From the NCBI GenBank assembly GCA_934101595.1, contig CAKORR010000003.1:36479-100478 (forward strand): 64,000 nucleotides of DNA, in the 5' to 3' direction. The position numbers and the translations under genes are program-made. Source of the DNA: an uncultured Bacilli bacterium. GTDB taxonomy: Bacteria; Bacillota_I; Bacilli_A; RF39; UBA660. The notes below the pieces were generated by a model that saw only the letters and a program-made list of their open reading frames with translations, was not told the DNA's origin and did no database searches. This document shows positions 14,092 through 17,948 of this stretch, one piece after another. Every line of letters starts with the position of its first letter. Position 1 is the stretch's first letter.

Positions 14092-15753
14092 TTAAGGACA
14101 AGTTTTAGTACTTGGAAGCCAATTTAAATCATTTTCATTAGTTCCATAGTCAGGAAATCTTACCGACAATTTACAATTATCATCATATTTTTCCTTGTTA
14201 ATATTAAGCGTTGTGCCGTTGATTTTACCATAGATTTCTTTAACCGTAGATGGTAATGAAACTGTTGCACTATATTGGTTATCAAACTTTATATTATTGA
14301 TACGTTCAATACCTTCTTCAACGATTACGTTTTTAACTGGAAAGTCAAAATTAAAATTAACTGTGCCAGCCTGGTTGACGTCACCCACAACACCTCTACC
14401 AACATTACCAGCTTTAATATATAAGTTCTCTACAACGCCATCATGTCCACTAGATGAATCAATTTTAGTAAATGCTTGTTCATCAACAATACTAAATGGA
14501 TATAAAGTTAAATTAGTAGCTTTTAAGCCAGAAAAAGCAAATTTCTTAATCTTAAAATACAAATTGTTAAAACTAAACTTAACATCATCAAGCCCTGTAT
14601 GACCTGAACTTCCAGCTATAGTTGAAAATGCTTCAGATTCAATGACCAATTGACTTTTTACGTTTGAAAAGTCAACTTTACTTACTTTTAATGATTCAAT
14701 ATCTTTTAAGGTTCCTAATATTACTGTATCTTTTTGACCACGACTCTCTGTACCATTTGTAAAATCTATAGAACCATCGCTATTAAATTTATACGCATAA
14801 TAATCATAAAAATCCGGTAAATTACTGTCTGTAATCAAATAAAATTTACGAGTTGGATATGTACTTTTCAATTCTGCTAATTTATTGAAATAGTTCTGAT
14901 TTACTATTACGCAAGTTGCTGTATTAGTATTGTTCGTACAACCAACATCAGCAACATAGGTGACATTTTTAAAAGCATCTTGACCAATTGTTTTTACTAC
15001 TTTGCCATTTATAGTATTAGGTATTACTACATTTGTTCCACAAGTTGCATCATATCCATAAATTTTTCCATCATCTGTCATTTGGAAGCATTCTTCCCTA
15101 GTTGCCTGTGCGTACTCTTCATTCTGATTAGGAAGGCTTGTTATTGTTACTCTACTAGTAAACGCTTTACCTTGTTCTTCAACTGAAGCGTTTTCATCAA
15201 TCCACATTTGTATTTTGTGAGTTATAACACTTTTTTGTGAATCAGTAGATCCAGGAATGGTTTCTTCTTTCAATTCAAATTGAAATCCATAAATTCCACC
15301 TTCACCGCCCCAATCATTTACAAGGTATCCATCCTCCTTAAAATAGTCGTTTAATGTTCCTATTACTCCGCCATCCAATGCTAATTTTATTGATTTACCA
15401 GACAATACACCTGGTGCATTTTCTCCATACACATCATATAAGTCTTGATATAAAAATCTTAAACCTATTAAATACGAAACATCTTTTGAACAATTATTAG
15501 TTATTGAAAATGTGTAAACCGGTGCATTTTGAAGTCCATCCTCATCACTTGTTGGCCAAGCATTTGATATTGAAAGGCCAGTATCATCACTAGACAAATT
15601 AATATCTAAGCACATTGCTACAATATCATTTGTATCTGATTGACTTTTTGATACTTGCCAAAAAGCATATGTTGATATAGCTACAACTGTAGCAATAATT
15701 CCTATTATTACGCAAGTTATTATTATTGCTTTTTTCTTATTTTTCTTTTCCAT
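14092..15753 (-). CDS. secreted TasA/camelysin-like N-domain protein with BspA-type leucine-rich repeats (paralog 1)
   Basis: ATG at 15753 with AGGTGA RBS. Signal/TM, then ...STYAFWQVSKSQSDTNDIVAMCLDINL...NAWP...YTFSITNNCSKDVSYLIGL aligns to TasA mature N-domain. C-terminal repeats of type xAFxxxxxLxxIxxPxSVxxIG. Confidence 0.6.
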   Translation of the reverse strand: MEKKNKKKAIIITCVIIGIIATVVAISTYAFWQVSKSQSDTNDIVAMCLDINLSSDDTGLSISNAWPTSDEDGLQNAPVYTFSITNNCSKDVSYLIGLRFLYQDLYDVYGENAPGVLSGKSIKLALDGGVIGTLNDYFKEDGYLVNDWGGEGGIYGFQFELKEETIPGSTDSQKSVITHKIQMWIDENASVEEQGKAFTSRVTITSLPNQNEEYAQATREECFQMTDDGKIYGYDATCGTNVVIPNTINGKVVKTIGQDAFKNVTYVADVGCTNNTNTATCVIVNQNYFNKLAELKSTYPTRKFYLITDSNLPDFYDYYAYKFNSDGSIDFTNGTESRGQKDTVILGTLKDIESLKVSKVDFSNVKSQLVIESEAFSTIAGSSGHTGLDDVKFSFNNLYFKIKKFAFSGLKATNLTLYPFSIVDEQAFTKIDSSSGHDGVVENLYIKAGNVGRGVVGDVNQAGTVNFNFDFPVKNVIVEEGIERINNIKFDNQYSATVSLPSTVKEIYGKINGTTLNINKEKYDDNCKLSVRFPDYGTNENDLNWLPSTKTCP

Positions 15754-15761
15754 TTGATCAC

Positions 15762-17231
15762 CTACTCTGTGTAATTCCATGTTACAGATTTAAACTCTGA
15801 TTCTGTTAAACCTGTTATTGTTCTTTGTGGACCATACATATATAATTCAACAGTTGATTTATTCTCAATATAGTAATTTGTACCAGTTATATTTGTAACT
15901 GTAGATGGAATATATATTTTCTTAGTAGTTAAGCCATCTTTAATAAAGTTTAAAGTTGTTAAACCTGTATCATTTCCTATCTTCAAATTATTTATAGTAC
16001 CAGCGAATGATAATTCACTTGCTTTTGCGTTAATTGTTAGATTTTCTATATTAACATATTCAAAAGCTCCGGCAAAAGTAGTTACTGTTTCAGGAATTGT
16101 TAAATTACGTATCATAAAATCATACATAATAGAGCCTCCTTCGATTTCAGTAACACTTGGGGAAAATTCAATTGTATCCGCAAAAAGCGGAAGCATTCCA
16201 GAGCTTAGTGAAGTTATACCATCTTCTAACACCACTTTATTTATATTGACAGCCAAGCATTTATCATAAATACTTTTAGCTAAAGTTGGATTTGATGATG
16301 CATTTATCATTTCAGCAACTTGAGCTTTAGCTGTTTCAGCAGTTAACGAATCATCTCCCATCGCAGTTTTCCATTCATCATCATTTAAATTATTAACATA
16401 TGATGCGAATAAAATTAATTGCATTAAACTTGCACTTTCGTTTGTGTCATTGTATGCCTTTTCTTCATCTGTTAAACCAACAAGTGGAAAATATATTTTT
16501 TCCAAGAATGTGAGATTATCAGTAACAACAACTTTTCCTTCACCACTATATACTAGTGTACCACTATCATATACAGTGTATGTTACACTACTACTACTAT
16601 CTCTTGAAACATCACCACTCGCTAGTTCTGCACCATAATTAGTTATTTTCTTTTGATTATCTGCTTGAGTTGCTGTTATATAGATTTTTCCTTTAAATGA
16701 TTTAGCGTTTTGATCAACTGGTGTATTAAAATCGATCCATGCTCTTAATGTATGAGTATTAGCTGCATTTGCTTTAACCTTTGCAACTGATAACTTTTTA
16801 CTTGCTCTTACACCATCCCTTACTACATCTTCTAATGCAGCATAATTAGATTTAGCGTTATCATCAAGCTTTACATCAACATATTTAAAATCCATATAAT
16901 TATTATTAGTTGATTCTAGAGCATCTAAACCTATTGTATATTTTATATCATAAGAACATTTATTAGTTACTTTGAATGTATATCCTGTTAAGAGTGCTGC
17001 TTCAGCATCAGTTATAGGTATAGCACTTTGTAACTTTATTCCTTCTGTTTCACTTGTTAAATCTAAGTCTAAGCAAGCTGAAATCATCGTATTTTTATCT
17101 TGTTGGGTTTTTGTCACTTGCCAGTAAGCATACGATATACTAACTGCCACAATTGCTACGATTACAAGACCTATAGTAACTCCTATTATCTTGTTTCGTT
17201 TTTTAGCCTTTTCATTTGTATTCTCTTCCAT
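15762..17231 (-). CDS. secreted TasA/camelysin-like N-domain protein with BspA-type leucine-rich repeats (paralog 2)
   Basis: GGAGG RBS. ...SISYAYWQVTKTQQDKNTMISACLDLDL...AIPITDAEA...YTFKVTNKCSYDIKYTIGL. LRR-like C-terminal repeats. Overlaps start of paralog 1. Confidence 0.6.
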   Translation of the reverse strand: MEENTNEKAKKRNKIIGVTIGLVIVAIVAVSISYAYWQVTKTQQDKNTMISACLDLDLTSETEGIKLQSAIPITDAEAALLTGYTFKVTNKCSYDIKYTIGLDALESTNNNYMDFKYVDVKLDDNAKSNYAALEDVVRDGVRASKKLSVAKVKANAANTHTLRAWIDFNTPVDQNAKSFKGKIYITATQADNQKKITNYGAELASGDVSRDSSSSVTYTVYDSGTLVYSGEGKVVVTDNLTFLEKIYFPLVGLTDEEKAYNDTNESASLMQLILFASYVNNLNDDEWKTAMGDDSLTAETAKAQVAEMINASSNPTLAKSIYDKCLAVNINKVVLEDGITSLSSGMLPLFADTIEFSPSVTEIEGGSIMYDFMIRNLTIPETVTTFAGAFEYVNIENLTINAKASELSFAGTINNLKIGNDTGLTTLNFIKDGLTTKKIYIPSTVTNITGTNYYIENKSTVELYMYGPQRTITGLTESEFKSVTWNYTE

Positions 17232-17255
17232 TTCTTCCTCCTATTATATAAAAAT

Positions 17256-17285
17256 AGTATAGCACAGCCAGTTTTTTCTTGTCCA
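17256..17285 (-). promoter_or_regulatory. sigma-A-type promoter for paralog 2/1 operon
   Basis: TGGACA, 18-nt spacer, TATACT on the minus strand about 25 nt upstream of the RBS. Confidence 0.4.
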
Positions 17286-17293
17286 TTAAATTT

Positions 17294-17323
17294 AAAAAAA
17301 TGTGAATTAAACTTCACATTTTT
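17294..17323. terminator. bidirectional terminator between paralog 3 and paralog 2
   Basis: A7-AATGTGAA-TTAAAC-TTCACATT-T5. Confidence 0.6.
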
Positions 17324-17336
17324 ACATTTCTTTATA

Positions 17337-17948
17337 TTAATCACCTGTTGCATATGCGGCCAAACCAACAATTGCTTCGAACTTTTTATTCATAGCGTCG
17401 TTACTAGCATCACCATTAACCCATAATTTAAGTTCATATGAAACTGATTCTTCTGGGTTTAATAAACCATTAGCAAGTAAATAACTAGTATTTATCTGTG
17501 AGCTCTTTTTAATAGCTTCTTCATTTAGAACATTATTAAGAGCTATTTTATCTAAGTCCGTAAGAATCTTCTTAGAAAAGCTTGTATTAGTAGTGGTATT
17601 AGTTAAATCACTTTTTATATCTTGATCTAATAGAGTATTACTAACTAAAGTATTTAATGATAACTCATAATAAGCTTTTATAGAACATGTATTTGTTATT
17701 GTTACTTTATATGGTTTTAAATTTGTTACTTTATCATCCGTTAATGGATAAGCATTTTTAAGATTTATACTAGTACTTACATTGTTTTCTGTATCAACAA
17801 ATGACAAACTAAAACATCCTGATTTGATAACATTAGTACTACTTTGGCTAACTTCTGTAACCCATATAGCGTAGCTAGAGCCAATAGTTGTTGTAATAGC
17901 AAGTAAAATAGCTATTACTAATAAAGACAATTTGTATTTCAACTTCAT
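17337..17948 (-). CDS. TasA/camelysin-like secreted protein, short form (candidate major fibre subunit; paralog 3)
   Basis: 203 aa: signal, then SSYAIWVTEVSQSSTNVIKSGCFSLSF...STSINLKNAYPLTDDKVT...YKVTITNTCSIKAYYELSLN...YELKLWVNGD, which aligns along TasA (SASVNLSNLKPGDKLT...FQFENNGSLAIKEVLMALN...W.G). Confidence 0.6.
   Translation of the reverse strand: MKLKYKLSLLVIAILLAITTTIGSSYAIWVTEVSQSSTNVIKSGCFSLSFVDTENNVSTSINLKNAYPLTDDKVTNLKPYKVTITNTCSIKAYYELSLNTLVSNTLLDQDIKSDLTNTTTNTSFSKKILTDLDKIALNNVLNEEAIKKSSQINTSYLLANGLLNPEESVSYELKLWVNGDASNDAMNKKFEAIVGLAAYATGD

Follow-up and report, generated by a model that had tools for sequence, protein, structure and literature searches.

What do three tandem genes for related exported proteins, two of them enlarged by leucine-rich repeats, provide for an uncultured bacterium, and does their common part belong with TasA? 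Among the protein scaffolds of Gram-positive biofilms, TasA-type fibres are understood best; their known members are plain subunits processed by a neighbouring SipW. The genes in question lie within a 64-kb stretch of DNA from an uncultured Bacilli bacterium (contig CAKORR010000003.1), the whole of which we call the window, and encode proteins of 203, 489 and 553 amino acids (aa), here named p1, p2 and p3. An earlier note, made from the sequence alone, had read them as TasA/camelysin-like paralogs, the two long ones carrying BspA-type leucine-rich repeats (LRRs); its observation is partly confirmed by the analysis below, and its interpretation partly supported. In our preferred reading, to which we give somewhat less than an even chance, p1-p3 are Sec-exported surface proteins with a very divergent module of the TasA/camelysin superfamily, through which they may form a donor-strand filament bearing LRR adhesins. 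We describe them as a remote TasA-like variant and do not file them as members of the TasA family, because the curated models of that family are unmatched and no SipW lies nearby.

A shared N-terminal module and its likeness to TasA

The N-terminal ~200 aa of p1, p2 and p3 are homologous, with pairwise BLASTP E-values of 2e-10 (p1 against p2), 3e-19 (p2 against p3) and 2e-9 (the remaining pair), so that the common architecture ascribed to them earlier stands. Each protein opens with a basic N-terminus, continues through a hydrophobic segment of 16-18 residues and then displays a short motif, S-S-Y-A-I-W in p1, I-S-Y-A-Y-W in p2 and S-T-Y-A-F-W in p3. Sites cut by signal peptidases classically have small residues at positions -3 and -1, and the corresponding motif [ST]-[YF]-[AS]/x-W, with the slash at the predicted cleavage point, is found in 155 of 160 relatives. 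The longer block that had been picked out by eye, S[ST]YA.W...C...INL.NA.P..D...Y.F.ITN.C...Y, is real and conserved across 270 non-redundant relatives. In p1 numbering, S25, Y26, A27, W29, Q35, N39 and C45 are conserved in 72-96% of these members (Y26 93%, A27 88%, W29 87%, Q35 91%, N39 95%, C45 96%), and further along the chain P68 reaches 100%, N86 99% and C88 96%. The two cysteines (p1 C45, 17814-17816; C88, 17685-17687) have equivalents in p2 and p3 and are kept as a pair in 96% of the 270 members. No Pfam or NCBIfam model covers the ~200-aa module, and the weak, sub-threshold matches to Pfam CSF-1, POTRA, Chordopox_A30L, DUF4179 and ETRAMP were treated as noise.

The likeness to TasA emerges in comparisons of profiles. 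When the family was aligned with TasA alone in hhalign, the same residue pairs were recovered that the earlier note had aligned by eye: signal peptide with signal peptide, SYAxW with TWAAF, GCFxL with GTLDL, INLxNxYP with VNLSNLKP and FTIxNTC with FQFENNG (family first, TasA second). Against an alignment of nine TasA/CalY sequences, comprising B. subtilis TasA and plasmid-borne 'TasA family protein' genes, the 270-member family alignment scored a probability of 92.3% (E 5e-7) over 161 columns. Moreover, a hidden Markov model (HMM) of TasA/CalY placed family members at 38 of the top 40 ranks among 1,958 open reading frames (ORFs) from 1.2 Mb of related loci, indicating, as far as sequence goes, that the similarity is specific to the module family within this set. 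In CalY, N-x-F-x-A-G is the counterpart of the nearly invariant N39-x-I41-x-x-G44. Additionally, Pfam Peptidase_M73 (PF12389) and NCBIfam TasA (NF046066) each gave weak matches in 2 of 51 relatives, with best E-values of 0.027 and 7e-4, respectively. The claim that the N-terminal block is TasA-like is thus supported by the residue pairs, the HMM ranking and a branch of the family linked to SipW; the curated models do not support it, and the profile without signal peptides gives a weak signal, both of which are taken up below. The aromatic P2' residue of TasA (F29) is reported to go with the dedicated archaeal-type peptidase SipW (PMC10269814).

Structure prediction points in the same direction. 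For p1, AlphaFold2 gave a confident monomer model from a 51-sequence alignment (predicted local distance difference test, pLDDT, 84.1; predicted template modelling score, pTM, 0.71), in which a helix at the N-terminus (residues 3-24) precedes a beta-sandwich. Residues 46-203, the sandwich core, mostly reach pLDDT 88-97; only residues 28-43 fall below 50. Conservation within the module peaks in the very segment that AlphaFold leaves undocked in this monomer. The donor strand of TasA is also unplaced in monomer models (PMC9674648), and residues 28-38 of BsaA are reported to behave likewise. In the TasA fibre, residues 28-38 form the donor strand, and F29, I32 and F39 pack into neighbouring subunits (PMC9674648). 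The p1 segment 28-45 aligns with TasA 28-43, bringing W29 and I41 of p1 opposite F29 and F39 of TasA.

The fold comparison proposed earlier recovers a TasA-type beta-sandwich (jellyroll) in the predicted p1 module, at low template modelling (TM) scores in Foldseek, ~0.34, and with ~14% identity in the structural alignment with TasA. Among 350,542 chains searched with the p1 model, Foldseek ranked 7ueg_A, the archaeal bundling pilus AbpA, at the top and as the sole match at E <= 1e-3. Also listed are 7pnb, a 'thread' subunit with a donor strand, and two chaperone-usher pilins, PapA and CfaB.

LRR parts and the wider family

The BspA-type LRRs of the two long paralogs are confirmed by homologs and by fold, while p2 and p3 themselves remain below the gathering threshold of Pfam LRR_5 (PF13306; 18.1 and 16 bits against 27.7). 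An ortholog of p2 that is 85% identical in the C-terminal part (P0014) passes that threshold with 40.4 bits, full-length homologs of the p2 C-terminal part (P0100, P0122, P0044) reach 50-78 bits, and for the p3 C-terminus, homologs that cover it in part reach 68-100 bits. The C-terminal parts of both proteins show the BspA-type LRR solenoid fold. Neither p2 nor p3 has a C-terminal membrane or sortase anchor; LPXTG anchoring was considered for p3, which ends in ...LPSTKTCP, and rejected as no hydrophobic tail follows.

Among strains, the LRR part of p2 stands out as a hypervariable surface domain. Between conspecific strains it is 70-85% identical (window 15765-16646 against 10718-12181 of contig L001 and 10718-12169 of contig L002), and in the same strains p1 is 98.5%, the N-terminal module of p2 98.5-99%, MiaB ~99% and GalE 99.7-100% identical. 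This is the pattern expected for an exposed domain with shifting binding specificity, and the hypervariability points to host, phage or immune interactions.

Word-indexed homolog searches, including those with profiles, returned only 7-11 relatives, and it was an exhaustive HMM search that revealed the family. Across 1.84 billion cluster representatives, this search gave 4,809 hits at E <= 1e-3, of which 2,762 reach E <= 1e-10, corresponding to ~4,800 clusters at 50% identity. The triplet is one instance of a very large family and no one-off. In the 150 best of the 4,809 hits, the module is always N-terminal and the proteins measure 175-950 aa. A Pfam scan of 80 long members placed no domain inside the module; C-terminal to it, LRR_5 was found in 17 and DUF285 in 16, followed by LRR_8 in four, RCC1, PKD, Flg_new and others. 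None of the sources searched gives a name for any protein of the family. It is large, unnamed and architecturally unusual, and even if its members are monomeric, a module of ~4,800 clusters outside Pfam and NCBIfam merits definition as a family.

A scan of GTDB genomes with p1 alone yielded no relative; with a sub-alignment sharing the motif PYTFTITN, it yielded 256, from which 79 loci were kept. Nearly all of these loci come from metagenome-assembled genomes (MAGs) labelled uncultured Bacilli, 'Tenericutes', Erysipelotrichaceae or Mycoplasma, with a few labelled Clostridia or Muribaculaceae; these MAGs are gut-derived, and their sample names indicate rabbit, human and chicken. Several copies per genome are common, as are tandem arrays, which may hold short members only, short and long members together, or long members only (up to five long genes). 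The exact p1 protein was found in 49 blocks of a metagenome collection.

Gene order sets p1 apart from its longer partners. In at least seven further MAG loci with a MiaB 64-70% identical to that of the window, a short family member lies directly downstream of miaB, usually followed by one or two more members and then by mscL and miaA. In a related species (contig L005; MiaB 75% identical), the miaB-galE slot holds a p1 ortholog and, in the place of p2 and p3 (10627-11062), two small ORFs of 54 and 95-113 aa unrelated to the family, indicating that the LRR paralogs were recently gained or lost. Since the short member is kept beside miaB in different genera, the module-only gene is a conserved core gene whose partners vary. 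Over ~10 kb around the match, seven loci (L026, L028, L035, L038, L045, L061, L078) conserve the order of a 214-aa MNYYYD protein, miaB, the short member, zero to two further members, mscL, miaA and the CCA-adding enzyme; in the lineage of the window, galE and uppS replace mscL and miaA.

Filament, membrane stalk or another sandwich

In the course of events that we infer, the module would comprise a TasA-type signal peptide with the [ST]-[YF]-[AS]/x-W site, a segment equivalent to the donor strand and the beta-sandwich. The proteins would be exported by Sec and cleaved after [ST]-[YF]-[AS], and the freed N-terminal x-W strand would then enter the sandwich of the next subunit by donor-strand exchange. 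As the product of the conserved core gene, p1 would form the bulk or backbone of a short surface filament; p2 and p3 could join in or on this filament because they carry the same module, displaying their BspA-type LRRs as strain-variable adhesins. A bolder proposal, which we consider unlikely, is that uncultured gut Bacilli possess a large, so far overlooked class of TasA-like donor-strand filaments, defined by the module. Here, subunits would be natively fused to interchangeable adhesin domains (BspA-LRR, DUF285, RCC1, PKD) with no dedicated SipW next to them, the invariant Cys45-Cys88 pair may lock the filament as an inter-subunit disulfide, and the miaB-adjacent module-only gene would supply the fibre backbone, with strain-variable LRR subunits giving binding specificity. 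In full-text literature searches, we encountered no account of adhesin domains, BspA-LRR and DUF285 among them, joined to a TasA-like module. If the module polymerises as TasA does, donor-strand-exchange fibres would extend to a whole clade of abundant uncultured gut Bacilli, in a modular design whose adhesin domain would be carried by the fibre subunit itself. This would also provide a first way into the function of thousands of unnamed surface proteins with BspA-LRR and DUF285 domains.

Several results weigh against such a filament. The HMM check suggested by the earlier note came back empty, as Peptidase_M73, NCBIfam TasA and TIGR04088 do not match p1-p3 even at E <= 1, and searches of PDB sequences with p1-p3 and family profiles returned nothing meaningful. 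Once the signal peptides are removed, the hhalign probability drops to 8.4%, so that the bulk of the signal stems from the signal peptide together with the cleavage site and first strand. A score of 23.3 remains, where 20 column-shuffled templates give 9-13.5 and a reversed template gives 14.6, and the core beyond the donor-strand region scores 18.8, suggesting a weak, collinear TasA signal above background in the mature domain. Furthermore, no signal peptidase I of any type was detected in the window, which bears out the earlier statement that a SipW-type enzyme is absent from the 64 kb, and neither a SipW-type nor a bacterial-type signal peptidase I was found within 10 kb of the family genes in the 79 GTDB loci.

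A SipW-type peptidase does occur beside a distant branch of the family (contig L008, relative P0011). There, four small members with 74-82 bits on the family HMM and the motifs TYA/IF and SFA/TF surround a 238-aa archaeal-type signal peptidase I, which scores 94.4 bits on TIGR02228 (above cut-off) and 84 bits on the Bacillus SipW model. This locus is a compact tapA-sipW-tasA-like operon. Its members taken alone show no profile similarity to TasA/CalY, a further point on the negative side, and the SipW link of this branch follows from gene neighbourhood and from homology to the family of the window. The operon spans 290-3470, with the peptidase at 2221-2937, four members that lack the Cys pair and, after these genes, two small membrane proteins.

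The scarcity of peptidases would suit a different arrangement, the main rival and in our estimate less likely than the filament, in which p1-p3 are monomers held in the membrane by an uncleaved signal anchor. The Y and W of SYAxW would then sit at the membrane interface, the sandwich would serve as a membrane-proximal stalk for variable LRR_5, DUF285, RCC1 or PKD domains, and no fibre would form. The hydrophobic stretch is long (16-18 residues) and part of one confident helix in the p1 model, the long paralogs have no other anchor, and the hosts, labelled as Bacilli or 'Tenericutes' MAGs, are related to Mollicutes; in 16 of the 80 long members the module is fused to DUF285, a Mycoplasma surface-protein domain. 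Against this, the strictly small residues at -3 and -1 (S/T at 72% or more, A/S at ~88% or more) typify a cleavage site and not an interface, and the very high conservation of the unplaced segment 28-43 is unexpected for a plain tether. The core gene, moreover, encodes the module only, a single domain of ~175 aa, and as membrane monomers of a walled spore-former such proteins would present nothing; genes for PBP5, SpoVID and YunB are the basis for assuming a host of that kind. That family members flank a SipW-type peptidase in L008 also counts against an anchor.

A second alternative, which we judge improbable, takes the module as a beta-sandwich unrelated to TasA, its likeness being convergent or generic, and would assign it, for example, to binding of the cell wall or of an S-layer-like lattice, or to a part as secretion or sorting tag for cargo domains. 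The unmatched curated TasA models and the weak profile signal of the mature domain are consistent with this view, as is the invariant Cys pair, which has no counterpart in TasA or CalY. It is opposed by the collinearity of the similarity and its specificity for the family among the 1,958 ORFs, other membrane and secreted proteins included, and by the link of one branch to SipW.

Very improbable, finally, is that p1-p3, instead of forming a system of their own, are substrates or partners of the type-IV-pilin-like system that four genes of this strand encode ~5 kb downstream, and that a pseudopilus exports them across the wall, as reported for the Bsa proteins of C. perfringens. In that species, secretion of the TasA-like BsaA oligomers and of BsaC is partly dependent on type IV pilus genes, which makes a functional link conceivable, but galE, uppS, a methyltransferase and spore-coat genes separate the two clusters, L005 and the miaB-linked loci of other MAGs have no pilin genes nearby, so that synteny supports no operon-level link, and p1-p3 lack the G/F..E prepilin motif. 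That p1-p3 are themselves type IV pilins was likewise rejected, as they have neither the prepilin leader (G, then F/M-T-L-x-E) nor an N_methyl hit. The four pilin-like genes (5390-8818, minus strand) have no assembly ATPase or platform gene adjacent to them.

Layout of the locus and comparison with known systems

The ORF coordinates agree with three tandem minus-strand genes of the lengths given earlier (Table 1), flanked by miaB (18269-19675, minus) and galE (13047-14054, plus). An overlap of the 489- and 553-aa genes had also been proposed, which arises only if p3 is started at the upstream ATG. The start at 15753 is preceded by the ribosome-binding site AGGTGA and agrees both with the N-termini of the paralogs in alignment and with the gene calls on related contigs (553 aa), and for these reasons we place p3 8 nt past the p2 stop, without overlap. 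The separate terminator claimed for the 203-aa gene is present as a hairpin with a U-run; a consensus scan missed it because it has fewer than three G-C pairs. The promoter proposed for the two long genes exists as a site, and we treat it as a consensus match only, since such sites are not enriched in the region (26 seen, 27.2 expected from shuffles).

Table 1. Features of the paralog triplet and of the pilin-like cluster, in window coordinates.
Feature	Position	Strand	Description
p1	17337-17948	minus	203 aa; module-only paralog with signal peptide, conserved N-terminal segment and beta-sandwich
p1 residues 1-27	17868-17948	minus	basic N-terminus, hydrophobic helix, predicted cleavage S25-Y26-A27 / I28-W29
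p1 residues 28-45	17814-17867	minus	candidate donor strand and linker; ends at C45 (96% conserved)
p1 residues 46-203	17340-17813	minus	beta-sandwich core; invariant P68, N86, C88, W176
Terminator-like hairpin and U-run	17296-17323	minus	downstream of p1; dG -10.2 kcal/mol, z -4.1 against shuffles
Promoter-like TGGACA-18-TATACT with TG extension	17285-17256	minus	upstream of p2; consensus match
p2	15762-17231	minus	489 aa
p2 residues 1-195	16647-17231	minus	N-terminal module, predicted cleavage motif SYA/YW; 152 bits on the family HMM (A5)
p2 residues 196-489 and stop	15762-16646	minus	linker and BspA-type LRR region
p3	14092-15753	minus	553 aa; ORF open to ATG at 15780 (562 aa)
p3 residues 1-212	15118-15753	minus	N-terminal module, predicted cleavage motif TYA/FW
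p3 residues 213-553 and stop	14092-15117	minus	BspA-type LRR solenoid region
Pilin-like ORF	8333-8818	minus	starts MKKGFTLVELL; N_methyl 28.5 bits, passes cut-off
Pilin-like ORF	7836-8339	minus	
Pilin-like ORF	6216-7820	minus	534 aa
Pilin-like ORF	5390-6304	minus	

The DNA of the window has a G+C content of ~29% and encodes a class B RNase P RNA, in keeping with Bacillota. Between 9094 and 10666 (minus), a 228-aa SpoVID-N/LysM-like protein and an adjacent 297-aa protein resemble spore-coat morphogenesis factors; together with YunB and SpoVS in the related contig L005, these spore-coat-like genes suggest a walled, spore-forming host. Farther along, at ~25591-29544 (minus; L001 1-2922), lies a gene for a protein of more than 1,300 aa with an ADP-ribosylating exotoxin domain (ADPrib_exo_Tox), followed by a small ORF and an ADP-ribosylglycohydrolase gene. 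The exotoxin-domain protein and the ADP-ribosylglycohydrolase may constitute a toxin/antidote pair.

Among known systems, TasA and CalY share with the present family a predicted cleavage site of the type small-aromatic-small/x-aromatic (TWA/AF in TasA and TYA/YF in CalY; SYA/IW, SYA/YW and TYA/FW here), followed within the next ~15 residues by N-x-[FI]-x-x-G ahead of the first core strand. Paralogs in tandem are another common trait, and one distant branch of the family stands beside a SipW-type peptidase. The two groups differ in that the curated models do not match here and identity in structural alignment is ~14%, in the invariant Cys pair found only here (and not in the L008 branch), and in SipW, which TasA and CalY have and which is missing from the neighbourhood here; the adjoining genes, miaB and galE, include no tapA either. 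Large C-terminal LRR, DUF285, RCC1 and PKD domains occur here, whereas characterised TasA-family proteins are without them, and the hosts here are uncultured gut Bacilli.

BsaA and BsaB of C. perfringens are similar in being remote TasA relatives that were found by profile methods and models only. Monomer models leave ~11 residues at their N-terminus disordered, an operon holds several of the paralogs, and LPXTG is absent, as in the present family. In contrast, the Bsa operon, compared here by description, has its own SipW and a vWA protein, and the donor-strand exchange of its proteins is locked by an N-E-K isopeptide triad where a conserved Cys pair is found here. The literature on BsaA and TasA proposes heteropolymers made from paralogs of the same operon, and what the BsaA study describes is limited to clusters of paralogs and to LPXTG, SpaA or sortase genes as neighbours.

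The bundling pilus AbpA (7ueg), the cannulae CanX and the Sulfolobus threads differ in being archaeal, with 10-13% identity and no adhesin-domain fusions. BspA-type LRR proteins (TpLRR, PcpA and those of Bacteroides and Eubacterium), among which we know of none described with a TasA-like N-terminal module, have the same repeat type and fold as the C-termini of p2 and p3, and differ in that the known ones attach via choline-binding repeats or other C-terminal anchoring or sorting modules.

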